Part shown: one piece after another, positions 1,964 through 34,869 of the stretch | Numbering within the stretch: the first letter of the stretch is position 1 | Layout of the letters: every line of letters starts with the position of its first letter | NCBI GenBank assembly: GCA_009695265.1 | Contig: SIBE01000001.1 | Coordinates: forward strand, 45-64,044 | From: Pedosphaera sp. | Lineage (GTDB): Bacteria > Verrucomicrobiota > Verrucomicrobiia > Limisphaerales > SIBE01 | Length of the DNA stretch: 64,000 nt | Reading direction: 5' to 3' | Notes under the pieces: model-generated | What the model was told of the DNA's origin: nothing | The model's database searches: none | The model's input: only the letters and a program-made list of their open reading frames with translations | Made by a program: the position numbers and the translations under genes

Positions 1964-3001
1964 TCAAGATTCATCCGCCGCCTGATTTGCCGATTCCAGT
2001 TTGATAGCGGCCCGTAGCCTGGCGAGTCCTTCTGCGATTGAAATCTTCGGGTTATAACCCAGGTCGCGGCGCGCCGCCTCCAGGTTGAACCAATGGGCGG
2101 TGGACATCTCCCGAACTACAAAGCGGGTGAGCCGGGGCTCCGCAGGGTTTTGTGTCAGGCGATGAGCGATTTCAAAACACACTGCGAACGCCATTGCGAG
2201 CCAGGTGGGAACGGACTTTTTGACGAGAGGAGCGTCTGCGGCTTCGAGCAACCGATTCACCATCTCCCACATCGGAACGGGTTCTCCTTGGGAAATGAAG
2301 TAGGCCTTCCCTGCCGGGGGCGACCGAGGTTCGAGGCGGTCCGCCGCGTTCATGTGAGCTTCAGCGGCGTTGTCCACGTACACGGCATCGATGAGGTTGG
2401 GGCGGGAGCCGATCCGGCGCAACTGCCCTGATCTCGCGCGGGACACGAGGCGGGGCAGAAGATGGTTGTCGCCCGGGCCCCAGATCAGATGGGGCCGGAG
2501 GCTTGTGGTGGCGAATCGATCGCCATTGGAGGCGAGCACCAACTGTTCTGCCAGCGCTTTTGTTCGCGGATAATGAGCCTCGTAGTGCGATGGATAGGGC
2601 ACGGATTCATCCACGCCTTCCATATCTTTACCACCGAACACAACGCTTGGAGAGCTGGTGTAGATGAGCCGTGGGACGCCCAGTTGGAGGCAGGCGTCGA
2701 TCAGGTTTTTGGTCCCCACCACGTTCGTCCGATGGTAATCCTCGTAGCGTCCCCACAAGCCTGGTTTGGCGGCCGCGTGGAAAATGAGATCGCAACCTCG
2801 AACGGCGAGTCCGACGGCTTTCGAATCCGCGATGTCGCCCAGGCATTGCTCGACGCCCAGCTCCTTCAACGCGGCGTGCTCTGTCCGTGAGAAACTGCGG
2901 GTCTCGATTCCACGTTGCAACAAACGGCGCACGATCGCCTGGCCCAGGAACCCGCCTCCGCCTGTCACGAGAGCGATCATTTCATTTTCCTGGCAGCCCA
3001 A
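1964..3001 (-). CDS. oleD: OleD: NAD(P)H-dependent 2-alkyl-3-ketoalkanoate reductase (3-beta-HSD/SDR extended family)
   Basis: 345 aa. Rossmann motif ALVTGGGGFLGQAIV, catalytic YPRTKALAE (YxxxK), 3-beta-hydroxysteroid-dehydrogenase-like. It is the last gene of an oleA-B-C-D order, and its start overlaps the oleC stop by 25 nt. Confidence 0.85.
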   Translation of the reverse strand: MGCQENEMIALVTGGGGFLGQAIVRRLLQRGIETRSFSRTEHAALKELGVEQCLGDIADSKAVGLAVRGCDLIFHAAAKPGLWGRYEDYHRTNVVGTKNLIDACLQLGVPRLIYTSSPSVVFGGKDMEGVDESVPYPSHYEAHYPRTKALAEQLVLASNGDRFATTSLRPHLIWGPGDNHLLPRLVSRARSGQLRRIGSRPNLIDAVYVDNAAEAHMNAADRLEPRSPPAGKAYFISQGEPVPMWEMVNRLLEAADAPLVKKSVPTWLAMAFAVCFEIAHRLTQNPAEPRLTRFVVREMSTAHWFNLEAARRDLGYNPKISIAEGLARLRAAIKLESANQAADES

Positions 3002-4656
3002 ACCGCAAGCTTTTCCCTGAAGATTTTTGCATTGTGTCGGATGTCCACAGGGAAGGCACCGTGAAACAGAAAAGTTTTGATATTCTCTGTGTGCGGGTAG
3101 GCTACAGCGATCCTCTGGAGCTCCTCAATGATTTTTCCCTTGGGACTTTTCTCTGCGGATAGTTCCAGTTCAACACAAATCACGGGGATGGTTTCACCGC
3201 TTCGACAAACACCGACCAAGGCGGTCCTGAATACTTGGGGATGAGTGTTAAAAACTGCTTCGCACGGAATGCTAAACAGAGTGCCATGGCTCGTGAGCAG
3301 ACGATGGGACTTGCGGCCGCAAAACCAGAGACGGCCTGCCGCGTCATAATAACCTAGATCGCCCATGCGGTGGTAGAACCCGCCATTCACCCGGTCTTGG
3401 ATTTTTGCGAGGTCTGTCGATCCTGCCATGTCGAAGTAGGAACGGGAGGCATGAAGGGCTTTGACCGCAATCTCCCCGATCTCCCCGATCCCGACCTCGA
3501 GCGTGTCGCTCCAATCGGGAATGGCTTCGTCTCGGATTTGGATGATACGGGCCTGCAAGCCTGCAACGGGTTTGCCGACGCAGACGCCCGATCCGCAGTC
3601 GGTCATCTCGGCGGTCTGGGAGAGTATTTCGTCACTGCCGATTGAAGCGACAGGAAGGCATTCAGTAGCACCGTAGGGCGTGAAAACCTGAGCGCTTTTA
3701 TCGAGCATTCTGGTGAATCGCGCGATCGTTCTGGCGGGGACCGGAGCTCCTGCTGAGATGACCCGGCGGAGGCTAGGGAGCCGGACCCCGTGCGCCTCTC
3801 CGTGGCGTCCGACGCGATTGACCAAGGCTGGGGAGCCAAACATGTTTGTGACTCGGAACTTTTGGATCGCGCTGATGATTTTAGTGGGGTCAACGTTTGC
3901 CGGCCTTGTGGGATCCATTTCAGGCACGACGGCTGTCATGCCCAGAGCGGGACCAAAGAGGGCAAACAATGGGAACGTCGCGAGATCGATCTCTCCTGGC
4001 TGGATTCCGTAGAGCGTCCGGATGTGGTGGACCTGGGCACCGAACATCTCGTGTGTGTAAACGGCCCCTTTCGGAATGCCGGTGCTGCCGCTGGTAAACA
4101 GGATGGCGGCCGTCTCTTGGGGGTGAGGTTGGACTGCGACGTGAAAGAGTTTAGCGGCTGGGACTGGTCTCATTAACTCGCGGAGCGTGTGGCCTCCCCA
4201 GAACCATCGGGCGCCTGCGGTTACCGTCACGCGCAGGGACTTTCGAGCCCACCCGAACAGCACCCTGGCCGTGTGTGCTTTGGGAATGCCGACAAAAGCT
4301 TCCGGCCGGGCTTGAGCGAGGCATCGGCCCAAGTTGCGAACACCGATGCCGGGATCAATCAGGACTGGCACGGCCCCCACCTTGAACAACGCGAAGGTGA
4401 GAGAAAAAAAATCCAAACTCGGCGGGACCATTAATGCCGTGTGAACTCCGCGGCGGATCCCGATTGCATCGAGCCCCGATGCGAGCTGGTTACTTAGGGT
4501 GTCCAGTTGCTTGAAGCTGAGCTGTTCATAGGCGGGTTCACCGTGCGGGCCCTTTCCTCTCGCGCAAATGACGGCGGCGCGATCCGGTTGAAGCGCCGCC
4601 ATCTCCGACAGGTGTTGGGCGATGTTTACGGGAATTCCACGACTTGCTTCAGGCAT
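2977..4656 (-). CDS. oleC: OleC: AMP-dependent synthetase/ligase family beta-lactone synthetase
   Basis: 559 aa. AMP-binding core ILFTSGSTGIPKGAVYTH, plus GYYDAAGRLWFCGRKSH in the C-terminal subdomain. Flanked by oleB and oleD with overlapping stop/start codons. Confidence 0.85.
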   Translation of the reverse strand: MPEASRGIPVNIAQHLSEMAALQPDRAAVICARGKGPHGEPAYEQLSFKQLDTLSNQLASGLDAIGIRRGVHTALMVPPSLDFFSLTFALFKVGAVPVLIDPGIGVRNLGRCLAQARPEAFVGIPKAHTARVLFGWARKSLRVTVTAGARWFWGGHTLRELMRPVPAAKLFHVAVQPHPQETAAILFTSGSTGIPKGAVYTHEMFGAQVHHIRTLYGIQPGEIDLATFPLFALFGPALGMTAVVPEMDPTRPANVDPTKIISAIQKFRVTNMFGSPALVNRVGRHGEAHGVRLPSLRRVISAGAPVPARTIARFTRMLDKSAQVFTPYGATECLPVASIGSDEILSQTAEMTDCGSGVCVGKPVAGLQARIIQIRDEAIPDWSDTLEVGIGEIGEIAVKALHASRSYFDMAGSTDLAKIQDRVNGGFYHRMGDLGYYDAAGRLWFCGRKSHRLLTSHGTLFSIPCEAVFNTHPQVFRTALVGVCRSGETIPVICVELELSAEKSPKGKIIEELQRIAVAYPHTENIKTFLFHGAFPVDIRHNAKIFREKLAVWAARKMK

Positions 4657-5542
4657 GGCTTGGATGTCGGACGAGGAACGATCTTATGAGGTCTAAGATC
4701 TCGACGCCCGCGTCTTCGAGAACATAATGGCCCGCGTTCGGGAAACGATGCACCTCAGCGTTGGGGAGCAGCCTCTCCCATTCCTCGAGGAAATGGTGAT
4801 CAAATACAAAATCCTTTTCCCCCCACAGAATGAGAGTGGGTGTGTTGCGGAAGCTCGGCAGTTTCGCTTGGATCTCGCTCACCAGATCGTAGCCGGGGTC
4901 CTCTGGCAGAAGAGGGATGTCTTTCACGAACCGCCAGATGCCGGTGCGGCTGCCAGCCGTTTTGTAAGGGGAAAGGTAACCTTCCCGAACGTGCGGTTCC
5001 ATTGGTTTGCACACGCACCAACGAGCCAAGACGCGCGGAAAGAGCGCTGTCTGCCGGATGATGAAATCGCCCAAAGGCGTGTTCCTGCAGAGCCACAGCG
5101 ACGCGGGGAGAGTCTTGGATTTTGGCAGATGAAATGCGGCGGTGTTCAGCAGAATGAGTTTTCCGATTTTCTCAGGGAAACGCGTGGCGTAGGCCATGCC
5201 GATCATGCCGCCCCAGTCGTGCATCACCAGCGTTATCCGGCCCTCGATCTCAAGCTGACTCAGAAGCTGAGCGATGTCGTCCACCCGCTGCCGCAGGGTG
5301 TAATCATATCTGTCCAGCGACGGTTTGTCCGAAAGGCCGCACCCGATATGGTCCGGGGCGATGACGCGGTAGTCGGCGCGCAAGCCTAGAACGAGGTTGC
5401 GATAGTAGAACGACCAGGTGGGGTTCCCATGAAGCAGCACCACCGACTCGCCCTTGCCTTCGTCGAGCAGGTGGATGTTGAATCCGTTGAGTTGCCGATG
5501 GATCCCGGTGAAGGGATAGAGGTCGTTTTGAAAATTTACCAT
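4649..5542 (-). CDS. oleB: OleB: alpha/beta-hydrolase (haloalkane-dehalogenase-like) beta-lactone decarboxylase
   Basis: 297 aa. VLLHGNPTWSFYYRNL, nucleophile-elbow LVMHDWGGMIGMAY (Asp nucleophile type) and a C-terminal GHYVLED His motif. Positioned between oleA and oleC. Confidence 0.85.
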   Translation of the reverse strand: MVNFQNDLYPFTGIHRQLNGFNIHLLDEGKGESVVLLHGNPTWSFYYRNLVLGLRADYRVIAPDHIGCGLSDKPSLDRYDYTLRQRVDDIAQLLSQLEIEGRITLVMHDWGGMIGMAYATRFPEKIGKLILLNTAAFHLPKSKTLPASLWLCRNTPLGDFIIRQTALFPRVLARWCVCKPMEPHVREGYLSPYKTAGSRTGIWRFVKDIPLLPEDPGYDLVSEIQAKLPSFRNTPTLILWGEKDFVFDHHFLEEWERLLPNAEVHRFPNAGHYVLEDAGVEILDLIRSFLVRHPSHA

Positions 5543-6585
5543 TCAAGTCCCACCATCAGGCACGTTAACCCGCTGCCGATTCCAAGGAAAGCGACCTTTT
5601 GTCCGTGTCGAAGAACACCGCGTTCCTCGGCAATCGCGGCTGTGGCTGGCAGCGCGGCAGTCCCCATATTGCCGAGGTACCGATAGGTCGTGTAGTCCTT
5701 TTCCTTGGGGATTCCGAGGGTCTTGAGGATTGCCTCCTGATGGCCGTGGCCGACTTGATGGCAGATGACGCGGTCGATATCGGCGGCAGTCCATCCCAAT
5801 TCCTTGAGAAAAACGTCCCAGGTTTGCTGTCCGAGTTTCACTCCGTTTTTCAGTACCGCAACCGAATCCGTGGCCATGAACTGGGTTTGGTTGCCATCGG
5901 GCAGGGTCTCGAGGCCCCATCGGCAGAGAGCGTGGTGTTCTGGAGCCACACGCGAGACGGCGCCGATAAGGCGGCTATTGAGCGGGTTTTCGTAAGAGCC
6001 GTCCGTCAACAGCATGGCCACGGCGCCCGAGCCTCCCGTGAAGGTGGCCAGACCTTCGACAAATGCCTCCATGCCATTTCCTGCGAGAAGGCGCGCGAGC
6101 ATCAATTCATTGATCTCCCGAGCGGTTTCGCAGGACACCACCAGACCCGCGCGGATCTGGCCAAGCTCGATGCGATTTGCTATATCGAGCATCGCGTTCA
6201 GGACTCCGAGGCACGCGTTGCTCAAGTCGTAAACTAACGCATTGCCCCTGACGCCGAGGGCGTCGGCGACGGCGCAGGCGGTTGCGGGCTCAAAATTCTC
6301 ACGGCAGACGCCGGCGTAGATCAGAACCCCCAGATCCGATGGATGAACCGTGGATTTTGAAAGCGCTTTGCGCGCCGCAGCCACGGCACCGACGGAGAGC
6401 CGCGCGTCGGGTTGCCACCATCGGCGCTCTTGGATTCCGGTCCACGCCTCGAGCTGGCCGTGTTGGAGGTTCAGCCTCGTGTAAACCGGACTTAGACGCT
6501 CCTCCAATTCCCGGGAGGTCACGACGACTGGGCCTAGCTCGTAGCCCATGGCGCTTAGATAAACGCGACTGTATTGAGTTGTCAT
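5536..6585 (-). CDS. oleA: OleA: FabH-like thiolase catalysing head-to-head Claisen condensation
   Basis: 349 aa KAS-III fold. Active-site Cys in YDLSNACLGVLNAM, a later HQVGHGH and NMGTAALP (His/Asn of the triad). It is the first gene of the oleABCD order and starts 7 nt after the stop of the pfaC-like gene. Confidence 0.85.
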   Translation of the reverse strand: MTTQYSRVYLSAMGYELGPVVVTSRELEERLSPVYTRLNLQHGQLEAWTGIQERRWWQPDARLSVGAVAAARKALSKSTVHPSDLGVLIYAGVCRENFEPATACAVADALGVRGNALVYDLSNACLGVLNAMLDIANRIELGQIRAGLVVSCETAREINELMLARLLAGNGMEAFVEGLATFTGGSGAVAMLLTDGSYENPLNSRLIGAVSRVAPEHHALCRWGLETLPDGNQTQFMATDSVAVLKNGVKLGQQTWDVFLKELGWTAADIDRVICHQVGHGHQEAILKTLGIPKEKDYTTYRYLGNMGTAALPATAAIAEERGVLRHGQKVAFLGIGSGLTCLMVGLEW

Positions 6586-6592
6586 TTTGTCA

Positions 6593-9500
6593 TCAACAAC
6601 AGCGCATTCGCAAGGTGAAGTCTTTCATTCCATAAATCAACCGTCCGTCCACTGAAAGGTAACCATCGGCGCGAAGCAAGCGTTGGTTGTCGTCCACTTC
6701 GGTAACGATCGCCTCAACAGTCACCAATTTGTTGCTCGGAACGACCTGCCCTCGGTAAACCCATTCGTGCCGTTTTGCAAGCGCGACAGCCTCGAATCTT
6801 TGGCTTGCGTCGCCTCCCCATCTTTCCTTGGCCGCAAACTTGAGCAGTTGCAGGAACGACTCCAGACCCAGCGAGCCCGGGACCACGGGATCCTGATAAA
6901 AATGTGCCTTGAAAAACCACTCCTCAGGACGGACCAGGCGCGTGGCGCGGATATAGCCCAACCCTTTCGGCCCCCCTTTCTCCACCCAGCATTCGATCCG
7001 GTCCAATAAACGCAGGCGTTTCCCAGGAAAAGGGGATGCCGCCGGAAAATTGAGCATCTTTCCTCCGCTCTGTTCCTCGGCGGAGGGAACATACCTGGTG
7101 GCGTCTTTGAGGCCCTCCTGTTTCTGGAGCGCGGTTTTTGGGAAAAACCCGAAATAGGTATCTCCTTTGTAAACCATCCCCTGCCTGGACGTGACCGAGT
7201 AGTCGAAGAATTGAATGATCATCCCAGCTGAGCTCGAGGCGCGCGTGAGTTTGACCCGCACGGTAAGTGTGCCGGTTTCAGCCGTGATGTTCTCAAACTG
7301 AGTCGCTGTTCCACCGAGATTCCGGAATGAAAGATCCTCCTCGCTGGTTAGAGCCGAGCCCATATAGCCCGCAAGCCAACCGCAGGGCTGCAAGGCGATT
7401 TCCAGCAGAACCGCGAACGGCATGTCGCGCTGACGGTTCTCCTCGAAATACCACGCGTCTGCCGGAATGTCATATTGAGTTTCAATTTCCGCGCCCGGCT
7501 CGATCTTCCACGGTTCGGCGCGAATCTCGGTCACCCTGTCGAGGAACTGATACGGCGGGCCCGGTAGCCGCGCAATCACCCGGTCGTTGTCGAAGATCCG
7601 GTAGTTCTCCCCAAATGCCTCGGAGGGCTTTCCGATTGCGAACGCGAGGATTCGATCGGAGTCGAAGATGGCTCGTTTCCGCGGCGGTTGCGCCGCCGTG
7701 GCCCAAAGACTTCTGAACGTCTCGATGGTTGCGCCCACGTAGCGCAAACTCATGTTGCTGATTTCAACGATCGGTTTGCCGTCCGCATACATCAGGGCGT
7801 CCGCGATCACAAACGGCTCGGGCCGGTAACCGATTTCCTTTATGGAAACCTCGTAGGTGACAGTTCGTGATGCGGCTGTGACCTGCCCGCGGCATTTCAA
7901 CTGGCTGGCGATTCCCGGGACGGGCTCGAGCGTGATCTGCCCTTCCTCAGAGACCCATCCGAGTCGCAACAGAAAAACACGCAGGGTATGCAGGCAACAC
8001 TCGAACATCAAGGTGCCCGGCATCACCTGATCGTCCACAAAATGGCACTTCAAGAACCAGTCGTCGGGTCGGATGACTGCTTCACCGCGAATAAGCCCGA
8101 GTCCGAAGCGTCCGCCCTTTGGGTCCAAGCGCGAAATGCTTTGGATCAGAGTCATGAGCCCCGATGGAATCGTGATCGGTTTCTTCAACGTGAGTCGATC
8201 GAACGGGGCTCCAAAACAGCCTGCGAGATCGCCTTGTCGCAAGAGGTCCAGTTGGTTGCTTGAATAGTGTTCGGACTTGATCTCGACAAATTCTTCCCAG
8301 TCGGATGCACGCTTTCCGGCGATGGGCTTGAGGTCCAGCGATGTTCGCACGATGCCTCGCCCTCCGGCCAGTTCCGCTGCTGAGAAAAATCCAGCGCAGC
8401 CCTCAGTCATGGACAGGAAGGGCATTCCGTCCACGGTGGCTTCAAAGCTAAACTTGAAGAGCCAGGTATCACTCTGGCGGAAAAATCGTTCGATGCGGAT
8501 GTCGTATCGGATGACATTGCCCGGTCCGGGCAAGTTGCGATGGAAACAAACTCTGGCGTCCAGCAACCGATAGACAGACCGCCCCCGCGTTTGGAAGTCG
8601 ATCCCGAGGTAGCCGGATAGAAAGAGGTCGGCCTGTCCTGCTTCGACCGCGATGCAGGTCGGAATCCGGTCGCAGTCCAGATACCAGGCTCCAGCATGAA
8701 TGTCGTGCTCCGTAACCACCCTTCCGTGAGTCATGGAGAGGGGGGTTCCGTGGATTTCGAGGATTCGATCCACAAGCATGAGTGGTTCGTCAGGGAGCCT
8801 GACGCGGGTCGGAAACGAATCGGCTTCCGCAAACGCCTGGCCCAGGACGTCTCCCACTCGACCGCGGCCAAACTCGAGACAGGCTGTTCTGTCGAGGGAT
8901 CGAGGTGCCTTGGGAGCGGACTCTGCGGTGGTGCGAAGCTCTTCTTGAACATGGACTGCAACGGGCTGTTCCTGTTCCTCTCTGAGTTTCTCGTTTGCGA
9001 GCGAACCGCCGAACTGTGGTTTCTCCAGCGGAAAAGTCCCCGAGAGCGCAGAAACCACGACCCCGGACTCGGACGCGATTTTCTCCAATTCGATCTGTCT
9101 TGTCAGGGCCTGAGCCAGTGAATCTGAGAGGTTGCTCGAGAATTCAAGGAACGCCGCGTGGGCCTGTGCGGTGGCTGTCTCAGCGTCCGAAAAGCGCCCG
9201 ATCATTGCCGTTCGGAACGCTTCCATGGAGGCGGGCGAAGGGTCGGTGAAGCTCGATAGCGGCGGCCTCACGGGCACGTCAAGCCCGTTCTGTTCGATCG
9301 GTATCGAGAGTCTGCCTTCCACACGGCGGTGTCGCGCGAGGGAGTTCGCAGGGACCACAAACGGCGCTCCCGACAGGGAAACCGTCACGGTTTTCACTGG
9401 CTTGACAGACTCGATATCGGCCGTTCCTCCAATAGCCGGAATGCCTGGATACAGAAAGTCCAGATCCAGCGGAGAACCCTCGACAAACGCGCCCGCGAGC

Positions 9501-12500
9501 GTTCGAAGGAAGTGAGCGATGGGTTCGGGCGTCTGGACGGCAAGCGATTTTGCGAAGTGAGGACGGTCAGCTAATATTTTTCCGATCATCCGGCTGCACG
9601 AATTGCCTGGCCCAATCTCGATAAAGGAACGGATCCCGGAGTTGTGGGCCGCACGGATGAGGCGCGGAAAATCAATCGTCTCCAGAGCCTGCGCCTCGAT
9701 GGCATCGGCGGCTGTTTCCTGATCGAGAGGATAAACGCGCCCCCATGCTCCGCTGTAGAAATCAATCCCCGCGGGCGGGATGGTTTTGAACCGGTGCATT
9801 TCGCGATAGGGACCGCGGACACTTCGGGCCAGTTCGCAATGGACGGTGCTTACACCTCTCAGAGGGAACCAGTGGCCACCCAACCGTTTGACGACAGATT
9901 CGACGACCGTCCGGTTCCCTCCGAGAACGCACTCATCAGGCGTGTTTACAATCAAAATATAGACTTGGCTTTGGGTTCCGATCGCGGCGCGCGCCTCCTC
10001 CGCAGAACGATCGATGACCCCGGCGGTCCATTCCGCGAGGGCATCTTCAGCCAGTCCCCATACCGCTCTGAGCACGGACGGGTGTCCGGCAAGGTCGCGA
10101 GAAAAAAGCGGCGACTTTTGCAGCCGCGCCCACATTTCGTCGCGTTGTCGCCAGGCACGAAAGGCGAAAAGCGCGGTGGATTCTCCGAGGCTGTAACCGA
10201 TCGAGGCGCGGGGTTTCAACCCAAAGGAGAGGGCTAGGTCGCTCATCATTGTGCCAAACGAGACCTGCCCGCAGATCATTGCGCGATAGTCCGAAGCGAG
10301 CGCGTCCGAGAGGGACGGCCTCCAGAAGCAGTCTGTGAACATCTGGCTCGCGAGCCGCTCATTTTCGGCGTCCTGAACTTGGAGGATTCGTGGCCACTCG
10401 AGCGCGAACTCTCTCCCCATGTCTGGAAACTGATTCCCTGAGCCGGGAAACACGAATGCGAGTCCACCTAGATCCTGGTTGGCCGACGGCTTTGAAACAA
10501 AAACCCGTTGACGTTCCTCGGATTCCACGCCGCCTTGGGTGCCGCGTTGAATTGCCGCGCCCACCATTCCGGCCAAACGAGGGAGATCATAAGTGTCCCG
10601 CGCCAGCAACGCCGTTCGCCACGGACCTTTCCCCCGAGAGAACGGTGAATGCCACCAACGGTGTGCCAGCTCTGCGATCGGCATGTTCCTGGCCGGGGAG
10701 GCCATCGAGACCAGCGCCGTGAGCGTATCTCGGAGGGAATCGTGATCCGCTGCCGAGGCCAGAAACAAAGCCTCTGATCCTGGTCGAGTTCGTGTGATGG
10801 GACGAGTCTGCGCCTCGCGAGAGTCGGGCTTCTCGCACGCTTCCAACACCAGATGAACACAGTTCCCATCTATCCCCATACTGCTGACGCCGGCGCGGCG
10901 CGGGCCGAGGATTCGATCTCGAACCCAATGCTTCGACGCGTGCGGGATCTGGATATTTTCGAATTGTGCCAGCAGAGCCAATGGTTCCCTGCAGCCTCGC
11001 AAACCGGGAATTGTTTCATGATGCAGGCAGAGGCTTGCTTTGATGAGTGAAGCAAGTCCGGAAACGGCACCGGTGTGGCCCACGTCGGCCTTGGCGCTTC
11101 CGAGTTGCAGAAAAGTTCTCCGGTTTCCACCCCCAAAAAACTCCACGATAGCTGCAGCCTCGGAGCGGTCTTCGTTTGGAGAACCGCTCCCGTGGGTTTC
11201 GAGGTAGCTCACGGTTTCTGGAGAGACGCCTGCCTCGTTGTAAGCGCGGCTGAATGCCAGTTGAACTGTGGCTGGCGCGGGACAGGATGTGCCCGCGTTC
11301 GGATCACTCGCTGCGCCGACTCCCCGGACAACGGCATAAACGCGATCTCCATCGCGCTCAGCGTCACTCAATCGTTTCAGGACCACGCAGGCAGCGCCTT
11401 CTCCGGGGATAGTTCCATCCGCTGCGTGGTCGAACGGGCGCGCGAACCCGCTTTTCGAATACGGGTTCACCAAGTCGGTCGCCAGTAGAGTTCTTACGTC
11501 TCCAGCTAGATCGACCGCGCCAGCAAGGGCTAGGTCGAGTTCTCTATTTTGAAGCGCTCGCACAGCGACTTCCACCGCGCGCAGGCCGGATGTGTCTTCG
11601 CTGCAGAGGGTGTGGGCGGGGCCTCCGATCCCAAATTCCCGCGCCACTCTGCTAGCTACCACACCTCCCAATGCTCCCAATGTTCTGTCCGCGGTCAACG
11701 GTGGGCCTGAACCTTCTCGAACCTCACTGAGCCATGCTGAACTTGTTTCATCCCCCTTCTGGAGCAGCCCGTCCTGTTGCCGCTCCCGTTCCCTTCGGAT
11801 CGTGGCCCAACGGAAATGGAAGTCCGTGGTTCGCATGTCCAGGCCAAGACCAATGAAGACTCCCGTCCGAGACGAATCCACCTTTTCAATCTGAGCATCG
11901 GCTATGGCCGACTTGGCGGCATCGAGCATGAGCAGTTGTTGAGGCAGCATCTCGGACAGCTCGCGGGGTGAGATGTGAAAACGATCGATGGGGACTGAGA
12001 AGTCTTCCACGTAAAAGCCCGGGAACAAAGGGGCGCCGCCTTTCCAGGCTTGGCTGATTTCAGGACCGCTCAAGCCGCGCCAGAGGTCGCGTGGTGACGG
12101 GACATTGCTGTCTCCTCGCAGGACCCTTTCCTGGAAGGTCTGTAGGCTGGTCCAAGGTCCAATCCGGGTGGCCAATCCTACGATCGCCACCGGTTCTGTT
12201 GGTAATCCCGCCTCAGGAACCCTCTGTCTCGCGGAGCGCGCGGGCTGTCTATCCGGGAGCCATTCCTCGATGAGCAGGTGCGCGTTGATTCCGCCAAATC
12301 CAAACCCGCTTATCGCGGCGCGGCGGGGAATATCGCCGACGCGGCGGTTCCAGGCCTCGCTTCGGGAGAGAATGGTAAAGGGGCTCCCAGCGAGCTTCAC
12401 GGCGGTCGATGGTCGCTCAAAGTTCGCGACGGGGGGGAAGATTCCTCGGTTCATCGCGAGGATCGTTCTGATCAACCCAGCACTGCCGGCCGCTGTCAAG

Positions 12501-13642: not shown

Positions 13643-16600
13643 TCGATCGGAACGCGTCCCTGAGCGCCGCGTCCACTACGCACTCGCAGCCCTCCATGGA
13701 GGCGATCAAGTTGCCCTGGGGGTCGATGATCTCGACTGCCGCGCTGGCGATCGGGCCGTTGCCGCGGGAAGTTGCGATGCGTATCTGGATGCCGTCCTTG
13801 GGAAATGCGCCAACATATTGACGGTATCGGTCAATGGCGCAGGGCAGGGAAGGGGCTCCGCGGTGTGCTGAACTCCACAGAATCAGCAATTGGAACGTGC
13901 TGTCCAAGACAAGGGGGTCGGCAACCCACGCGCTTCGCAACGGATGCTGAATCCAGGCGCTGGGAGCAGGGGCGGATTTCACGACAGCCGAGATACCAGA
14001 CTCGGCGCAGGCTTCGACTTTCTCGATTCCGTGGAACGCGTCCCCGTGAAACAGGATCCCTCGGGCGTAAGGGTTCGAGAACCCGGCGCCAGCCTCCATG
14101 ACGAGCCTGGGCCTGGGCGGGGTGGGCAGGCCGTTGGGAGCCAGCAGAACCTCAGCCTGCGCGTGCAATGTCACGCGACCTTCGCGCTCGCTCGTGATAC
14201 GGACTGGCACCACGAAGCAATCGTTTCGCCATGCGCCTGCGGATGTTTTTAGGCTGATCAAGACAGACTGGTTTGCCTCGACGACAACCCCTTTGAGCAC
14301 CTTGAACCCATCGAACCCATGGAACGTCATGCCTGGGTTGTGATGGAGCGCCGCTTGGGCAATCCATTCGATCATCAGCGCGGCGGGCAGCACAGCGCGT
14401 CCATTGAACGCGTGCGAAGTCAGACACGGCAGCGAAGTTATCCCAACCCTTTGGTCGAACGCAACAGACTGCTCCGCTGGGAGCGTGGTCGGGGAATTTG
14501 TGGTGTGAACATTCGGCGAAGGGGCGATCGCAAGAACCTCCACGGCGCGATTTTCCGAGGAACAGATTTCTCGCAGCAGAAATGCTGCGCCCGCCTCGGG
14601 TTCGATGAGGCCCACGCCCTCTTGCTCAAATACCTTCCGAAGTCCAGGGGTGACCATGCCTCCGTTCCACGGTCCCCAATTCACAGACACAACTCGGCTG
14701 TCTGGCCTGCGGCGCGACTCGGCTTGGGCGAGCTTGTTGAGGACCTCGTTCGCCGCGGCATAATCGATTTGTCCGATCCGCCCGTACCGGCCTGTGTAGG
14801 ATGAGAACAGGGCGATGACACGAAGATTGTCCAAGGAAAGAGCGGCGAGAAGATTTCTTAGCCCCGAGACTTTGGTGCCATAGACGAGGTCGAATTGTTC
14901 GTCCGTCTTGTCTTCGATTAAACGGTCGGCGAGCACTCCAGCACCATGGACAAGGCCTTTGATTGGGCCGAACTCCTCCCGGACATCGCATATCACGCGG
15001 CTGACCTCGACCGATTCGCGAACGTCCACAGATTTGTAGATCGCTCGGGCTCCCACGGCTTCAAGGCGTCTGAGCTGCGCGCGGATTTCGCGTTGGGCCA
15101 TTAGATCGCGGTAGCGAGATTCCAGATCTTTCGGCTGGGTTTTGCCGTTCTGGTTTTTGAACAGCGACTTCTTGATCTCCTCCGGCGAGCTGAGGCCGTT
15201 CAGCCAGGCGGGTTCATTCTCGGCCAGCTGGCTTCGTCCCAGCAACACCATGATGGGGCGGAATGCGCGTGCGATCGCGAGCGCTGCCTCCCCGGTGACA
15301 CCCCGCGCGCCTCCCGAGACAATGAGCACATCCCCCAGTGCCAGAGGGGCGATCTCGGTCCCGTTACCCGCTGGAGCGAGCGTGACTTCCAGGGAGACTC
15401 GGCATTTGTCCGACAATCCCACTTCCACTGGGCCTTCGAGAAAGAGTTCGCTGACGATCTGCTCTGCCGCCGTTTGAGGGAGAAAGTTTTCCGGGTTGAT
15501 ATCGAGCGCTTTGCAATGGACCTCAGGCCACTCACGTCGTGCCGTTTTAACAAGGCCAGCCAGTCCGCCGCTGATGGGGTCACTCTTCCCATTCAAGCTG
15601 CCGAAACCGAATGCTCCGTCGAGGCGCGACACCGTGAGCAGGAGCGCTCCGGTTCGGTTGCCGGACTCGCGCAGCGCCGGCCCGGCGCGTTGGATGAGTC
15701 GAAAAGCGTCTTTGAGAAAGGTCTCGTGGCTCCCCTTTGACGGTGTGAGAATGACGAGCGCTTCCGGGGCGGCTAGATCCGGGCGGTTGAACCCGGTTTG
15801 TAAGTCACCTCGGTGAACTGAAAACCCAAGTGCCTGCAACCGATCCACGGTTATCGCCGCAAGTTCAGAACCATCGTCGGTCAGCCAGACGGAGGCCCCT
15901 GCCCGGATGCTGATGGCCTTGCGCTGGGATCTTCCGGCCAGATCAACTGGACGGACTACCTGGCGCAGGATTCCTGGTATAAGGCGTGCGGATTCTTTTT
16001 CTGCAACGGCCGGGGCAGCAATCGGTGCTTCTCCCCCAGACGGGCTGTGCAAGAAGTCAACAATTTGCTGCAATGTTTGCAGGCTTCCAAGGTGTTCGGG
16101 TTTGATTTCTGGTGACCGGGGAAGCTGGCTTCTCAGAGACGCCATAATCTCGACGCGTTTGATCGAATCGATCCCCAGATCTGTGTCCAATCCCATTCCC
16201 AGGTTCAACATCTCAACTGGGTAACCAGTTTTCTCCGCCACCACAGCCAGCAAAATCCGTGGAACGTCGTCGTGCTTGATCGGTTCATGGGTCTCGATTT
16301 CGGGTTCCTCTTGAGGGGAAGCCGGGGCGCCGTTTTCAAGGAAAAGAACCACTTCCCCGAGTGTTTGCAGGGTTCCGAGATGCTCTGGCTTGATCTCGGG
16401 CGATCCCGGGAGTTTGGACCTCAAGGCCGCCATGATCTCGACACGTTTAATCGAATCGATGCCAAGATCGGCATCCATCCCCATATCGAGACTCAACATC
16501 TCGACGGGATAGCCGGTCTTTTCCGCGACCACTTCGAGGACAGCCTTGTCGTAGGAGGATCGGTCGGCGGGCTTTGATCCGGGCTGATGAGCGGGGGATT

Positions 16601-19600
16601 TGGCAGCAGGCAATGGTTGCGATGAGGCGTCGTCCGCGCGTGCCGCGTTTTGGTTTGGAATGGCTTGAGCGGACGCTGTGCTCGTTTCGAGGGCCGGGGC
16701 TCGAACTGTCTGCGAACGATTTCCTTCGCGCTGCGGCCCCCATGCTGTGGCTGTCCCAGGGTCGGCAGCCACGGAGGGACTTGCCACGACTTGGGATCCA
16801 AGCATCGCCTGAACGGCGCGCCGCGCGGAATCCTGACCCTCAAGGAATTGCTTGTGAAGCTGAGCTGTGTGTTCGTGCAAGCGCTGAAGGGCGAGGATTC
16901 CTTCCTGGGTCGTGCGTAGGGCTCCTGCAACGTCCGCCGGGGGCATCGAAGTGGGCGAGGGGACGGCGCGGTTGGCAGAGTGATCTGAAACCTTCGCTGT
17001 TCCCGTGGCGATCGCGCCGGGAGAAACCGCGTATTTTGGAGAGTGCCGAGGGGACTCTGAGAGCACTCGCTCCACCGGCGCAGACGCGCGCGAGACGGGA
17101 GGTCTTGGGGTTGCCGGAGAGCGGTAGTTGGCACCCGTGAGCTGGATTGTCAAGGCGGGTTTACCGAGGGCGGATTCCGCTGATTCGGGAGGGTTTTCCC
17201 AACGGTCCAAGGTTACTTCGTGGCCCAGGGAAGCCAGGCGGCTGAGCGCGAATGCCAGGTCGAAAGTTCCGGAGCGATTGCCCTTCGACGCATCGATGGC
17301 GATGGTTTCGACATCGCGGCTGAACAGGATCGATTGAACCAGGTCGATCAACACATGCCCTGGGCCGACCTCGATAAACGTCCGCACTCCGTCGGCGTGC
17401 ATTGCCCGGACCTGTTCCATGAAGTTGACAGGGCGCACTATCTGATTAGCGAGCAGTTCGCGGGCTTGTTTGGCTGTCTTCGGATATTCGCGTCCAGTGG
17501 TGTTCGCGTACACCGGGATTCGGCCCTTGCTGAAAGAGACGTTTTCGAGAGCTGCCGCGAAGGGGCCCAGGGCATCGGCGACGAGAGGGCTATGAAAGGC
17601 CGCGGAGACTTGGAGCACGCGTGTGCGAATGGAGCGCTTTGTCAATTCGCCCGCGGCTTTCTCGATATGTTCGACTGACCCCGCCAGAACAAACTGCTTG
17701 GGCGAGTTTCGATTGGCAACGACGAGGTGACCGTTTTCTTCCGCGAGAAACTGCCTGACGGCTTCTTCGTCTGCCTGCACCGCGAGCATGGCGCCGCGGT
17801 CTCCGTTGCCGTTGCCATTTGTTCTGGCCATCAGACGTCCGCGCAGATTAGAGAGGTGGTGCAATGCCTCGGGCTTGATGCGCCCGGCACCGCACAGAGC
17901 CAGTAGCTCTCCATAGCTATGCCCGCATGCTGCTTCCGGGGCAACTCCGAAATATGCTAGAACGCTGAAAGCTCCGATGCTGACCGCGCCAAGGGCGGGT
18001 TGAGCTATGTCCGTGGCTTTGAGTGATTCTTCCTGCTGGCGCCGCGCTTCGTCTGAGAACGCCGGATGCGGGTAAATGAAATCGCTCAGCTTTTTGCACT
18101 TCGCATGATCCGGGTCGTCGGCGAACACAGCGTCCGCCTCCGCCAGAGCGTCGAGCATCCCCGGGAACTGGCAGGCCAGGTCGCGCAGCATGCCGACATA
18201 TTGGGAACCTTGACCTGGGAACAGGGCACCCAGCATGCCGTGGGCTTTGCCGGAACCAAACGCGATGCCCACGGGAGCTGCCCAGGAGGATTTTTCCTGG
18301 TTTTTCTCCAGCATCTTGAGCGCGGTTTCCTTGAGGCTCGCGCGATCGGAATCGTTTGTAACGACGATCAAAAGCCGGTATTGAGAACTCCGATCGAATT
18401 GTTCGCGTGACTTCCGTGCGGCCCTTCTGAAATCCTGCCATCGCATGTCGGTTGGGTGCGCTGAGATCTGGGCGCGCAATGCCTCTAAACGGTCGCTCTG
18501 GAAAGCCAGGATTTCGACATCGCCATCCCAATCCACGCAGGGTTTGGCTTTCCCATGCTCCTCGAGGATACAATGAAAATTGGTGCCGCCGAAGCCCAAG
18601 GCGCTCACGCCCGCGCGGCGGGGATGAGATTTTACAGGGAGCCAGGGGCGTTTCCGGGTGTTCACATAGAACGGTGATTTCCCGGGAGCGGCTTCTTCGA
18701 TCGGCTGGCTGACTTTGATGGTGGGCGGCAGGATTTTCTGGTGCAGCGCCATGGCTGCCTTGATGAACCCGGCAACACCCGCCGCTGCCTTCGTGTGGCC
18801 GATCTGTGATTTGACGGACCCGAGGGCGCACCAAGGTTCCTGATGGAGTGGTGCCTGGAAAATCTCGGTCAAGGAGGAGAGCTCGGTTGCATCCCCCACT
18901 TTGGTGCCTGTTCCATGGGCTTCGATCAGGCCCATGGTTTGCGGGCTGGCTCCTGCGTTCTTGTAGGCTCGTTGGAGGGCCAGTTTCTGGCCGTCGGCCC
19001 GAGGGGCGTAGATTGCGTTGCCCCGGCCGTCGCTCGAAGAGCCCATGCCTTTCAACACCGCGTAAACCCGATCGCCATCTTTCTCCGCGTCTGCCAGCCG
19101 TTTCAGCACAAGGATGCCGAGGCCCTCTCCGAGGATCGTGCCGTCACAGTCTTTATCGAATGGTTTGGCGTCACCGGTGGGGGAAAGCGCCGGCGTTTTG
19201 CTAAAGCAGAGGTACATGAAGATGTCGTTGAACGTGTCCACGCCCCCCGTGATCACCATGTCTGAAAGACCCGCTGAAAGCTCGAGACTTGCCAGGTGGA
19301 TCGCCGCGAGCGAACTCGCACATGCTGCGTCCACGACACAGTTCGTCCCTCCCAGATCGAGCCGGCTCGCGATTCTGCCCGCGGCCACATTGCCGAGCAG
19401 GCCCGGAAACGAGTTCTCCTGCCAGCCTACATAAGAATCCGAGATGCGCTGAACGACGTCTTCCGCTACCTCCCCTTCGACCCCAGCGTCTCTGAGCGCT
19501 TTCCGCCAGATGGGATGCCCGAGGCGGGCACCCAGCGGGATCACGAGTTCGAGGGCGCCCGTCACGCCCAGGATGACGCTCGTGCGCTCTCGATTGAATG

Positions 19601-19943
19601 GCCGGCCGTCACCGTAGCCTGCATCTGCAAGGGCTTGCTTCGCCGCGACAAGGCTGAGGAGTTGGGTGGTGTCCGTGGCTTCGACATCTTTTGGCGAGAT
19701 CCCGAACTCCATGGGGTTGAACGTGACGGGCGACAGGAAGCCGCCGCGCATGGCATATGTGCGATCCGGTGACTTTGGGTCCTTGTCAAAATAATCCGCG
19801 ATGTTCCAGTGGGAACCCACCGGGACAGGAGTGATGGCGTCCACGCCGTTCTTGATGTTCGCCCAATAAGCGCGGAGGTTTTCCGCCTTCGGGAAGAGAC
19901 AGCTGATGCCAACTATGGCGATGGGACAGGGCTCGCTGGTCAT
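13620..19943 (-). CDS. pfaA: PUFA-synthase subunit PfaA-like: KS - AT - ACP - ACP - KR - PKS-type DH
   Basis: 2107 aa.
- KS: DAACASS (Cys208, nt 19320-19322), HGTGTKVGD and GHTKAAAG.
- AT: GHSYGE (Ser676, nt 17916-17918).
- A long Ala/Pro/Ser-rich linker.
- Two ACPs with LGIDSIKRVE (Ser1164 nt 16452-16454; Ser1260 nt 16164-16166).
- KR: SGGARGVTG (about nt 15290-15325).
- DH: HAFNGRAVLP (His1844, nt 14412-14414). Confidence 0.92.
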   Translation of the reverse strand: MTSEPCPIAIVGISCLFPKAENLRAYWANIKNGVDAITPVPVGSHWNIADYFDKDPKSPDRTYAMRGGFLSPVTFNPMEFGISPKDVEATDTTQLLSLVAAKQALADAGYGDGRPFNRERTSVILGVTGALELVIPLGARLGHPIWRKALRDAGVEGEVAEDVVQRISDSYVGWQENSFPGLLGNVAAGRIASRLDLGGTNCVVDAACASSLAAIHLASLELSAGLSDMVITGGVDTFNDIFMYLCFSKTPALSPTGDAKPFDKDCDGTILGEGLGILVLKRLADAEKDGDRVYAVLKGMGSSSDGRGNAIYAPRADGQKLALQRAYKNAGASPQTMGLIEAHGTGTKVGDATELSSLTEIFQAPLHQEPWCALGSVKSQIGHTKAAAGVAGFIKAAMALHQKILPPTIKVSQPIEEAAPGKSPFYVNTRKRPWLPVKSHPRRAGVSALGFGGTNFHCILEEHGKAKPCVDWDGDVEILAFQSDRLEALRAQISAHPTDMRWQDFRRAARKSREQFDRSSQYRLLIVVTNDSDRASLKETALKMLEKNQEKSSWAAPVGIAFGSGKAHGMLGALFPGQGSQYVGMLRDLACQFPGMLDALAEADAVFADDPDHAKCKKLSDFIYPHPAFSDEARRQQEESLKATDIAQPALGAVSIGAFSVLAYFGVAPEAACGHSYGELLALCGAGRIKPEALHHLSNLRGRLMARTNGNGNGDRGAMLAVQADEEAVRQFLAEENGHLVVANRNSPKQFVLAGSVEHIEKAAGELTKRSIRTRVLQVSAAFHSPLVADALGPFAAALENVSFSKGRIPVYANTTGREYPKTAKQARELLANQIVRPVNFMEQVRAMHADGVRTFIEVGPGHVLIDLVQSILFSRDVETIAIDASKGNRSGTFDLAFALSRLASLGHEVTLDRWENPPESAESALGKPALTIQLTGANYRSPATPRPPVSRASAPVERVLSESPRHSPKYAVSPGAIATGTAKVSDHSANRAVPSPTSMPPADVAGALRTTQEGILALQRLHEHTAQLHKQFLEGQDSARRAVQAMLGSQVVASPSVAADPGTATAWGPQREGNRSQTVRAPALETSTASAQAIPNQNAARADDASSQPLPAAKSPAHQPGSKPADRSSYDKAVLEVVAEKTGYPVEMLSLDMGMDADLGIDSIKRVEIMAALRSKLPGSPEIKPEHLGTLQTLGEVVLFLENGAPASPQEEPEIETHEPIKHDDVPRILLAVVAEKTGYPVEMLNLGMGLDTDLGIDSIKRVEIMASLRSQLPRSPEIKPEHLGSLQTLQQIVDFLHSPSGGEAPIAAPAVAEKESARLIPGILRQVVRPVDLAGRSQRKAISIRAGASVWLTDDGSELAAITVDRLQALGFSVHRGDLQTGFNRPDLAAPEALVILTPSKGSHETFLKDAFRLIQRAGPALRESGNRTGALLLTVSRLDGAFGFGSLNGKSDPISGGLAGLVKTARREWPEVHCKALDINPENFLPQTAAEQIVSELFLEGPVEVGLSDKCRVSLEVTLAPAGNGTEIAPLALGDVLIVSGGARGVTGEAALAIARAFRPIMVLLGRSQLAENEPAWLNGLSSPEEIKKSLFKNQNGKTQPKDLESRYRDLMAQREIRAQLRRLEAVGARAIYKSVDVRESVEVSRVICDVREEFGPIKGLVHGAGVLADRLIEDKTDEQFDLVYGTKVSGLRNLLAALSLDNLRVIALFSSYTGRYGRIGQIDYAAANEVLNKLAQAESRRRPDSRVVSVNWGPWNGGMVTPGLRKVFEQEGVGLIEPEAGAAFLLREICSSENRAVEVLAIAPSPNVHTTNSPTTLPAEQSVAFDQRVGITSLPCLTSHAFNGRAVLPAALMIEWIAQAALHHNPGMTFHGFDGFKVLKGVVVEANQSVLISLKTSAGAWRNDCFVVPVRITSEREGRVTLHAQAEVLLAPNGLPTPPRPRLVMEAGAGFSNPYARGILFHGDAFHGIEKVEACAESGISAVVKSAPAPSAWIQHPLRSAWVADPLVLDSTFQLLILWSSAHRGAPSLPCAIDRYRQYVGAFPKDGIQIRIATSRGNGPIASAAVEIIDPQGNLIASMEGCECVVDAALRDAFRSNGLELEK
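16044..16556 (-). repeat. Tandem duplication encoding the two ACP domains of PfaA (period 288 nt / 96 aa)
   Basis: ACP1 is aa 1130-1204 (nt 16332-16556) and ACP2 is aa 1227-1300 (nt 16044-16265). They share VVAEKTGYPVEML.L.MG.D.DLGIDSIKRVEIMA.LRS.LP.SPEIKPEHLG.LQTL. The DNA copies are clearly alignable by eye. Confidence 0.85.
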
Positions 19944-21610
19944 GTGTTCATTGCTTCGCGCATTGTTGCTGGCTCCAGAGGATGCACGCTCGCCAAGCCC
20001 GCTGGCAAGCGAATCCCTTGAAGGCTTAGGAAATGCTGGCGTAGCAGCGCCGCAGCGCCGTGCAACAGGTTATGCGCTACCACCACCACTTTGCGGTTCT
20101 CAGGTTTCTCAAGAAACGTGCCTCGTGTCCATTCGTTAAAGGCACCCATCGCAGGACCACACCAGATCTGATAGTCCATCGTCCGAGAAGGCTCACCGCT
20201 GTTTGCCCACCTCGAACTTAAGCCTAGATAGGATCGAAATACGAGCGCCATTTTGTGCTTCGGATCTCGCTCAGCGCGCTCGACTTGTCGCGGCTCCCGT
20301 TTCAAAAAGAACTCGCGCGTCCCCCGCCATGCCTCCTCCAGAGGAACTCGAAGCAACTGTTTCTCAACAAAAGCCCGGTCCGGTTCGGGCAGGGAATCAA
20401 GGCTGGGATAGGTGCGATACAACTCGTAAAGCCGGCTTGCGCGCATAGGAAACATGGTTCCTCGCTTGAGCACCTGCACTTTGACCCCCATTTCGAACAT
20501 GTCGGCCGCTGGAGCCATGGCAACATCCGCCTGTTCAGCCTGGGCGAGCATTTGGCGAACAGCATCACAACTTCCGGACTCCACGCAAGCTTGATTTATC
20601 GAGCCGGTGACAACATACGCGGCTCCCATCGCAAACGCACCAGCCACCGACGACGGCGTCGATAACCCACCCGCCGCACCGATGCGTGGTGTGCGCTCGT
20701 AACGGTATCGGGCTTGGATCCTATCTCGGAGCGCTAAAAGAGTGGGGAGCAGAGTCACAAGAGGGCGGTTGTCAGTGTGGCCCGCCGAATCAGCCTCCGC
20801 CGTCACATCACCCGCCATAGGTATTTCCGACGCCATTGCAGCTTGGTCGAGCGTGAGTTCGTTCTTCCGAACGAGTTCGCTCAGTAACTCATGAGGAGGA
20901 GGTGACAAAAACTGAGTTGCTACTTCAACTCTGGAAACTTTAGCGATAACGGAGTTTGGTAATCGAATATTTCCTACCTGATCTCGGTGAATTCCGGCGA
21001 CTCGGTATCGGACGATTGGAAGCGTGAGTCGGAGATAAGCAGAAGCTTCGACGAACCGCACGGCGCGCTGCACGTAGAGTGTTGAAACGGCGGATTCCAA
21101 TTCGGGTTCGTTGGGACTGTGGATGAGATTGAAGCCGTGCGGAGCATTTGGGATCGCCTCCGCCAGATGGACGATTGCTTCTTCAACTCGCGCTAGGCTG
21201 AGTCCTGCGGCCCCGAAAATCGCCAGCATGCTGGCCCGGGCCATTTCCTCCACTAAACGCGTGGACCCGATTCCATTGGCCATGGCGCCCGCGACGTAGG
21301 CGTAACGGACGGCATGGTTTCTGATGAACCCAGGGTCTCCCAAGCACTCGGGGCCGATGGCGGGAATATACGCGTTGAGGGTTCCAGGGCTCTCCTTTGG
21401 ATGACAACCGCAAAAGGTGAGAGTGTCTGCCTCCCCGTTCGCCAGCCGTAGAACGCCGTTGTCGCGATTCTTTAGTAGAAAGAGGGGAGATCGCAGGCGT
21501 CCGATGGCGCGAGCCAATTCGGATTCGTCCGCAACAGAGGATGAACTCTTGCATTCGAGCCGCCTCAAAGACCCGGGATCCGAGGTTTCAGTTGCTGTTC
21601 GTTTTGCCAT
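19940..21610 (-). CDS. pfaD: PfaD-family enoyl reductase (2-nitropropane-dioxygenase-like, FMN) of PUFA/polyketide synthase
   Basis: 556 aa. YAYVAGAMANGIGSTRLVEEMARASMLAIFGAAGL and the later GAAGGLSTPSSVAGAFAMGAAYVVTGS are typical PfaD motifs. Its TGA stop overlaps the pfaA ATG (ATGA at 19940-19943). Confidence 0.9.
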   Translation of the reverse strand: MAKRTATETSDPGSLRRLECKSSSSVADESELARAIGRLRSPLFLLKNRDNGVLRLANGEADTLTFCGCHPKESPGTLNAYIPAIGPECLGDPGFIRNHAVRYAYVAGAMANGIGSTRLVEEMARASMLAIFGAAGLSLARVEEAIVHLAEAIPNAPHGFNLIHSPNEPELESAVSTLYVQRAVRFVEASAYLRLTLPIVRYRVAGIHRDQVGNIRLPNSVIAKVSRVEVATQFLSPPPHELLSELVRKNELTLDQAAMASEIPMAGDVTAEADSAGHTDNRPLVTLLPTLLALRDRIQARYRYERTPRIGAAGGLSTPSSVAGAFAMGAAYVVTGSINQACVESGSCDAVRQMLAQAEQADVAMAPAADMFEMGVKVQVLKRGTMFPMRASRLYELYRTYPSLDSLPEPDRAFVEKQLLRVPLEEAWRGTREFFLKREPRQVERAERDPKHKMALVFRSYLGLSSRWANSGEPSRTMDYQIWCGPAMGAFNEWTRGTFLEKPENRKVVVVAHNLLHGAAALLRQHFLSLQGIRLPAGLASVHPLEPATMREAMNT

Positions 21611-34861: not shown

Positions 34862-34869
34862 AGCCGAAC

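Follow-up and report, generated by a model that had tools for sequence, protein, structure and literature searches.

Seven linked pfa and ole genes in a freshwater member of the Verrucomicrobiota and their probable role in polyunsaturated hydrocarbon synthesis

Seven genes on one strand

The 64,000-nucleotide (nt) stretch of DNA analysed here, called the window in what follows, comes from Pedosphaera sp., a member of the Verrucomicrobiota (assembly GCA_009695265.1, contig SIBE01000001.1, positions 45 to 64,044), and carries a cluster in which genes for a Pfa-type polyunsaturated fatty acid (PUFA) synthase are joined to the oleABCD genes of olefin synthesis. The table of open reading frames (ORFs) of the window agrees with the initial annotation of this DNA in that seven consecutive minus-strand ORFs fill positions 1964-21610, and because two of them run to 2107 and 2349 amino acids, a chance origin is excluded. 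In the order of reading, pfaD (19940..21610; minus strand, as for all seven genes) encodes the enoyl reductase (556 amino acids) that acts in trans with the Pfa synthase. It is followed by the gene of a PfaA-like megasynthase (13620..19943, 2107 amino acids) and by that of a second megasynthase resembling a PfaBC fusion (6593..13642; 2349 amino acids, or 2335 from a GTG at 13600), which we call pfaC for short. The remaining four genes are oleA (5536..6585, 349 amino acids), for a predicted thiolase of the non-decarboxylative, head-to-head Claisen-condensing kind; oleB (4649..5542, 297 amino acids), for a haloalkane-dehalogenase-like alpha/beta hydrolase that is predicted to be a beta-lactone decarboxylase; oleC (2977..4656, 559 amino acids), for a predicted AMP-dependent olefin beta-lactone synthetase; and oleD (1964..2980, 338 amino acids, or 345 from 3001), for a predicted NAD(P)H-dependent 2-alkyl-3-oxoalkanoate reductase.

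The genes are as tightly packed as had been described, and on the annotated ORF ends, neighbours overlap by at most 25 nt and stand at most 7 nt apart. The stop of pfaD and the start of pfaA share a 4-nt ATGA overlap. The long pfaC ORF overlaps pfaA by 23 nt; if pfaC starts instead at GTG 13600, which lies 14 codons later and gives the 2335-residue product that was called independently on contigs whose OleA is identical, the two genes are separated by 19 nt. A gap of 7 nt (6585-6593) lies between pfaC and oleA, and oleA and oleB overlap by 7 nt, oleB and oleC by 8 nt. At the last junction the overlap is 25 nt with the TTG start at 3001 that had been chosen for oleD, and a 4-nt ATGA with an ATG at 2980. 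The latter is most likely the true start and the TTG too early, since the alignment to the OleD model begins at residue 8 and the independent gene call on the contigs with identical OleA also has 338 amino acids. Whichever start is used for pfaC, this packing suits translational coupling.

With respect to transcription, a consensus scan of positions 1000-22400 found no promoter-like or terminator-like site at the pfaC/oleA junction (6585-6593), in line with the earlier proposal of a single transcription and translation unit, though the sigma-70 consensus used for the scan is crude and may not hold in Verrucomicrobiota. Across the scanned region, the numbers of such sites were at the level of shuffled sequence, and a hairpin after oleD (1911-1895) is weak and indistinguishable from chance. 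The sole sizeable non-coding gap flanking the seven genes is the 500-nt divergent intergenic region upstream of pfaD (21611..22111). The same scan found no convincing minus-strand sigma-70 site within it, and it is by position alone that we consider it the likely promoter region of the operon. The gene overlaps, together with the lack of a signal at the pfaC/oleA junction, support a single transcription unit, and we infer co-transcription of all seven genes on this basis.

The three Pfa proteins have the domain orders that had been read from their translations, as judged by Pfam and NCBIfam models and by motifs. PfaD matches TIGR02814 (pfaD_fam) with 626.6 bits against a cutoff of 449, and Pfam also reports NMO and FabD helical insert domains in it. 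The PfaA-like protein scores 1509.9 bits on TIGR02813 (omega_3_PfaA; cutoff 1010) and has the order ketosynthase (KS, 18711-19925), acyltransferase (AT, 17322-18224), two acyl carrier protein domains (ACP1, 16344-16544; ACP2, 16056-16256), ketoreductase (KR, 14664-15323) and PS-type dehydratase (DH, 13680-14489). Its KS motifs are intact (DAACASS, EAHGTGT, KSQIGH), its AT motif is GHSYG, and its PS-type DH carries HAFNGRAVLP, which fits HxxxGxxxxP. The two ACP (PP-binding) domains have LGIDS serines at S1163 and S1259, 96 residues apart.

The second megasynthase has, by Pfam, two ketoacyl-synt/Ketoacyl-synt_C pairs, four stretches of FabA type and a weak match to Acyl_transf_1. DAACASS is present in the first KS only (12416-13579), and the second KS-like domain, which lacks the active-site cysteine motif, is taken as a chain length factor (CLF). 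The AT that follows (9554-10477) has the motif GYSLG and is PfaB-like, with 76 bits on TIGR02816 (pfaB_fam) over residues 1056-1357, a score under the cutoff of that model. The four FabA-like hot-dog stretches of the DH region make up two DH pairs, and two of the stretches carry the active-site histidine (CHFVDDQVMPG and AHFYQDPVVPG, conforming to HF..D.V.PG); the catalytic halves lie at 7748-8185 and 6626-7027. Judged by this KS-CLF-AT-DH-DH order, the protein corresponds to what is called a pfaBC fusion in the literature.

Family placement of the Ole proteins

For OleA, the earlier distinction between OleA and FabH is borne out: the protein reaches 197 bits to Xanthomonas campestris OleA and at most 89 bits to any FabH. 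Its twelve top matches among PDB sequences are all structures of X. campestris OleA (3ROW, 3S21, 4KU5 and others, 190-197 bits), the next match, of FabH type, has 88.6 bits, and E. coli FabH has about 45 bits. On curated models, it scores 469 bits on NF006720 (cutoff 285) and 86 bits on the fabH model TIGR00747 (cutoff 292). X. campestris OleA, for which a query sequence was reconstructed from the PDB alignment, behaves alike, with 472 bits on NF006720 and a failure on the fabH model. The two proteins are 37% identical, and in a gap-resolved alignment C125, E99, H276 and N306 of the window protein align with C143, E117, H285 and N315 of the X. campestris enzyme. In the structural work of Goblirsch et al., Glu117 is reported to be the OleA-specific base and Cys143, His285 and Asn315 to have catalytic roles. 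The protein is thus placed in the OleA family, where it groups with the characterised Xanthomonas enzyme, and an ordinary FabH is ruled out by the model and PDB scores together with the conserved equivalent of Glu117.

OleB is an alpha/beta hydrolase by Pfam (Abhydrolase_1, 115.7 bits) and has the motif HDWGG, with D109 as the nucleophile, and a C-terminal GHY histidine. Its assignment as the Ole decarboxylase is made mostly because of its position between oleA and oleC. Among its homologues in JGI, at 66-69% identity, a minority are automatically named cis-3-alkyl-4-acyloxetan-2-one decarboxylase and the others haloalkane dehalogenase. A search of PDB sequences gave, as a side observation, two entries called "alpha/beta fold hydrolase" (8CKP and 8OOH, about 131 bits) ahead of every named haloalkane dehalogenase. 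A beta-lactone natural-product cluster, of the kind that has oleACD only, was considered for this locus and is ruled out by the presence of oleB.

OleC matches two olefin beta-lactone synthetase models over its full length, NF045785 with 684 bits and NF045786 with 682 bits, and NF006754 with 752 bits (cutoff 478), while other ligase models are far weaker than the olefin beta-lactone synthetase models; its motifs are TSGSTGIPKG and YGATE. For OleD, the top matches are NF042422 (oxyalk_red_OleD, 421 bits) and NF042423 (393 bits), followed at a distance by HpnA (150 bits). In Pfam it is a 3Beta_HSD protein (195.7 bits), and it carries TGGGGFLG and YPRTK. The three motifs initially quoted for the Ole proteins (SNACLG, HDWGG, TSGSTGIPKG) were all found, and catalytic motifs are intact throughout the cluster, in the KS, AT, ACP, KR and DH domains as well as in OleB, OleC and OleD.

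Distribution and surroundings of the cluster

A search with OleA in a collection of 5.8 billion proteins returned more than 6000 matches at E < 1e-20. Identity is 74% or higher throughout the top 120, and the automated name acyl-CoA:acyl-CoA alkyltransferase occurs among them. For a survey of synteny, one genome was taken per GTDB species, which gave 264 relatives; the best 80 loci (L001-L080) were examined, and the seven window proteins were mapped on them by tblastn. The closest of these best 80 is L001, on contig CAMAWP010000004.1 of a lake Verrucomicrobiota metagenome-assembled genome (MAG), which agrees with the initial suggestion of a PVC-like host. Its OleA is 99% identical to that of the window, the other proteins are 93-96% and the DNA about 94-95% identical, and the same yggS neighbour is present.

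The adjacency of pfa and ole genes, for which a survey had been proposed, is found across many phyla. Upstream sequence of 2.5 kb or more is available at 71 loci, and in 63 of these the C-terminus of pfaC lies directly upstream of oleA on the same strand, at a median distance of 35 nt; oleB, oleC and oleD follow oleA colinearly in 52 of the 56 loci with enough sequence downstream. The loci are labelled as Verrucomicrobiota, Betaproteobacteria (Burkholderiales, Nitrosomonadales), Desulfuromonadales, Desulfobacterales, Planctomycetota (Schlesneria, Gemmataceae, Phycisphaeraceae), Elusimicrobia, Lentisphaerales and an acidobacterial-type MAG. An Sfp-type phosphopantetheinyl transferase (PPTase; PF01648) comes immediately after oleD in 17 of the 37 loci with readable sequence there, among them L017, L018, L019, L021, L023, L024, L031, L034, L035, L037, L040 and L043; in the window and its closest relatives this position is held by a YggS-type gene for a pyridoxal phosphate (PLP) protein in place of the PPTase. 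Since pfaC-oleA linkage and oleBCD colinearity are both so common, a fused pfa-ole string is what this OleA clade normally has, and it often ends in pfaE.

These numbers also bear on whether the two gene sets are merely neighbours. The Pfa proteins might make a PUFA or secondary lipid for phospholipids, and OleABCD might independently make mono- to tri-unsaturated olefins from acyl-CoAs of the fatty acid synthase of type II (FAS II), much as in Xanthomonas. Eight of the 71 same-clade loci (L048, L052, L054, L055, L069, L071, L072, L075) have no pfaC within 10 kb upstream, showing that an OleA of this clade can exist unlinked, and Shulse and Allen raise the chance that pfa homologues keep a stand-alone product (PMC3098273). 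However, pfaC and oleA lie just 7 nt apart, and 63 of 71 genomes, which belong to six or more phylum-level groups, retain this junction; both points favour functional coupling. In addition, Shewanella OleA uses the Pfa-derived chain only, despite an active FAS II (PMC6463001). We therefore regard two independent pathways as improbable, and prefer a reading in which the Pfa synthase supplies OleA. One of the eight loci, L069, from the complete genome of Schlesneria sp. T3-172, also lacks oleB, oleC and oleD within 10 kb and so has an orphan OleA-like gene.

Within the survey, OleA is far more conserved than the neighbouring megasynthases, with 74-79% identity compared to 53-67% for PfaA and PfaC at the same loci (L003-L047). 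This hints at an unusually tight constraint on OleA, perhaps because the protein docks on ACPs of the Pfa synthase.

Neighbour-joining trees of OleA and OleC, built without support values, have a coherent betaproteobacterial clade (Burkholderiales/Nitrosomonadales) between two groups of Verrucomicrobiota, and other members of the Verrucomicrobiota fall with types from Desulfobacterota or Planctomycetota, with contig taxonomy taken as labelled. This suggests that the whole pfa-ole module may move between phyla. Such movement fits the horizontal transfer argued for by Shulse and Allen (PMC3098273), and contrasts with the conclusion of "only rare lateral transfer" (PMC7158056). In this context, several records of lake or environmental MAGs are filed under implausible species names (Akkermansia muciniphila, Bordetella parapertussis, Klebsiella pneumoniae, Enterobacteriaceae; L001, L002, L003, L008, L025, L030, L034, L035, L039, L050). 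The names look like placeholders, as the pfa-ole sequences of these records cluster with MAGs of Verrucomicrobiota or Burkholderiales.

The initial annotation had set the fused string apart from the separate loci of Shewanella and thereby implied that it was new. This was overstated, because the arrangement is already published and is usual in the OleA clade. Geobacter bemidjiensis, which produces the C31 nonaene C31:9, has the tandem order pfaD-A-B-C-oleA-B-C-D-pfaE (PMC4882568, Yoshida et al. 2016). A "Type I" pfa-like cluster with a pfaBC fusion was described from Geobacter, Pelobacter, Desulfuromonas and the planctomycete Gemmata by Shulse and Allen in 2011, who also noted a frequent linkage of ole genes to pfa clusters (PMC3098273). 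The locus is thus an ordinary further example of a described cluster type and brings no new mechanism.

Downstream of oleD, after a gap of 93 nt, lies the gene of the YggS-type PLP protein (1142-1870, minus strand); this ORF was considered as pfaE and is ruled out by that identity. Upstream of pfaD, in divergent orientation, is a pyrroloquinoline quinone (PQQ)-dependent dehydrogenase with a cytochrome c domain, and the remaining window ORFs that were scanned have functions outside lipid synthesis (anthranilate synthase, HisF, TruA, BamA, DnaB and others). Scans of the window for tRNAs and Rfam families were both empty, so that it offers neither a riboswitch nor an RNA marker of taxonomy.

Some features farther away deserve mention in their own right. 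About 9 kb from the cluster, at 30582-31526 on the plus strand, a MerR-family regulator with two B12-binding domains has a CarH-like architecture, as in light- or B12-responsive regulators. Within 33374-38754 (plus strand) an Ig-domain protein of 495 amino acids, the ORF of which shares about 140 nt with a YHYH-domain ORF, precedes a protein of 1294 amino acids that has a sulfatase at its N-terminus, an Ig domain and two Lcl C-terminal domains. The region 33374-38754 has the highest GC content of the window (0.61-0.63). The pfa-ole cluster (0.593) and positions 21.6-40 kb (0.591) are GC-richer than the right-hand 24 kb (40001-64000, 0.53), which holds housekeeping genes (trpE-like, hisF, truA, bamA, dnaB).

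Proposed pathway and comparison with known systems

Family placement, intact motifs, gene spacing, conserved synteny and the precedents of G. bemidjiensis and Shewanella together lead us to propose, with good confidence, that the seven genes form a co-translated operon for a polyunsaturated very-long-chain hydrocarbon, in which the Pfa synthase feeds OleABCD. The product class suggested earlier, a Pfa- or PUFA-derived very-long-chain polyolefin, is well supported by homology and context. In the proposed pathway, the PfaA-like and PfaBC-like proteins and the trans enoyl reductase PfaD would assemble, in repeated rounds on the two ACPs, a polyunsaturated acyl chain with methylene-interrupted double bonds, and by analogy with Shewanella this chain may be 16:4n-3. 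OleA would take over two such chains and join them head-to-head, in a non-decarboxylative Claisen condensation, to a 2-alkyl-3-ketoacid, which OleD would reduce to the 3-hydroxy acid. OleC, using ATP, would close the latter to a beta-lactone, and OleB would decarboxylate the beta-lactone to a cis-olefin. A phosphopantetheinyl transferase from another part of the genome would have to prime the Pfa ACPs.

By analogy, the most probable single product is 3,6,9,12,15,19,22,25,28-hentriacontanonaene (C31:9), a neutral membrane lipid, to which we give about an even chance. Sukovich et al. are reported to have found in 2010 that most of the Gram-negative ole carriers tested, a verrucomicrobium and a planctomycete among them, made a single C31:9 nonaene, which was reportedly the commonest product, and that a verrucomicrobium (Opitutaceae TAV2) and Planctomyces maris made long-chain olefins. 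The presence of oleABCD in Verrucomicrobia and Planctomycetes is documented (PMC5673642, PMC10176705, PMC7158056), and the olefins of Gram-negative bacteria have been summarised as "especially nonaenes" (PMC7158056).

A number of observations weigh against the proposed pathway. Sequence does not reveal the product or its chain length, and the PfaA-like protein has just two ACP domains. The top NCBIfam matches of OleB are haloalkane dehalogenase models, all under their cutoffs, and no OleB-specific model was among its NCBIfam and Pfam matches. OleC stays under the genus-level equivalog cutoffs of NF045785 and NF045786 (850 and 900), and OleD under the 580-bit cutoffs of both its models. As to the earlier assignment of oleB-D to Ole families, curated Ole models are among the best matches of OleC and OleD at sub-cutoff scores, and OleB has no dedicated model. 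Because all four scores fall under narrow genus-level cutoffs, OleC and OleD appear to form a third lineage that is about equidistant from the Shewanella and Xanthomonas types. To these points come the crudeness of the promoter scan and two missing genes. No pfaT-type thioesterase was seen by Pfam on about 40 ORFs of the window, and no Sfp-type PPTase (pfaE) was found in the window by Pfam on the same ORFs, by tblastn, or by a custom hidden Markov model (built from the PPTases that follow oleD in related loci) on the six-frame translation. The pathway had been called complete, which is right for oleABCD, all of which are present, and slightly generous in view of the lack of pfaE in cluster and window.

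The missing pfaE also raises the question whether the cluster is silent or decaying after loss of its dedicated PPTase and yields no product at all, given that a PPTase follows oleD immediately in 17 of 37 related loci and a YggS-type gene stands there in the window. However, all seven ORFs are intact with their catalytic motifs preserved, and in L001 and the contigs with identical OleA the genes are likewise intact and next to yggS, which indicates purifying selection. Furthermore, pfaE is unlinked in some producers, for example in Photobacterium profundum, and since its linkage is not universal among producers, the missing gene does not exclude membership in the Pfa group; the window moreover makes only part of the genome visible. 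A silent or decaying cluster is thus very improbable, more so even than two independent pathways.

A weightier alternative accepts the pathway and doubts the product. The acyl chain may be other than 16:4n-3, which would give an olefin of another length or unsaturation, or Pfa chains may be condensed with chains from FAS II. This would be compatible with the 37% identity of OleA to the characterised enzyme, with the near-equal scores of OleC and OleD on Shewanella-type and Xanthomonas-type models (684/682 and 393/421 bits) and with the two ACPs of the PfaA-like protein. On the other side stand the C31:9 data attributed above to Sukovich et al. There is also the production of C31:9 by G. bemidjiensis, which has the same gene order (PMC4882568; PMC3098273), and the prevalence of nonaenes among Gram-negative olefins (PMC7158056). 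On balance, we consider a different product rather unlikely and keep C31:9 as the favoured one. A broader idea, that a self-contained mobile pfa-ole module has moved between phyla in freshwater and here may make a polyolefin other than C31:9, is put forward tentatively, as possible and somewhat doubtful.

What the locus adds is one more uncultured freshwater lineage of Verrucomicrobiota among the known carriers of pfa-ole polyolefin genes, and current genome collections show that, in many phyla, oleA genes of this clade as a rule follow pfaC directly. This is of use for annotation, where OleA, OleB, OleC and OleD of this kind routinely receive the wrong names FabH, haloalkane dehalogenase or acyl-CoA ligase, and for estimating non-cyanobacterial hydrocarbon production in lakes.

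Of the known systems, Photobacterium profundum SS9 resembles the window in that pfa and ole genes are neighbours (PMC6463001), but there they form two operons with a pfaT thioesterase gene between them, whereas the window has an uninterrupted string with a 7-nt junction and no thioesterase in sight. Xanthomonas campestris OleABCD shares with the window the fold and family of OleA, including the Cys, Glu, His and Asn residues, and its OleC and OleD types are matched with 682 and 421 bits. It differs in that its host is not known to have pfa genes, in using acyl-CoA substrates from FAS II and in making mixtures of C28-C31 olefins with one to three double bonds (PMC7064751).

Genetic proof exists from Shewanella that the hydrocarbon made by way of ole depends on the pfa genes and that the link runs through OleA, which probably draws acyl chains from the ACPs of PfaA (PMC6463001, Allemann et al. 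2019). Shewanella oneidensis MR-1, with pfaEABCD and oleABCD and C31:9 as product, has the same enzyme families, and the same chemistry is proposed for the window. The loci are unlinked there, however, PfaB and PfaC are separate, pfaD comes last, there are more ACPs, and a thioesterase, pfaT, has a part. With the window proteins, the OleC and OleD models of Shewanella type give 684 and 393 bits, under the equivalog cutoffs.

The closest precedent by published gene order is G. bemidjiensis, which likewise has pfaD first, then pfaA and the pfaB/C function with its AT, and then oleA-B-C-D, all on one strand. The window differs in its freshwater Verrucomicrobiota host, in having no pfaE after oleD and in the two ACPs of its PfaA. 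With the AT on the KS-CLF-DH protein and oleA 7 nt further on, the cluster fits "Type I" by architecture and linkage, and loci of Desulfuromonadales and Gemmataceae (L057, L061) are colinear with it at protein identities of 40-61%.

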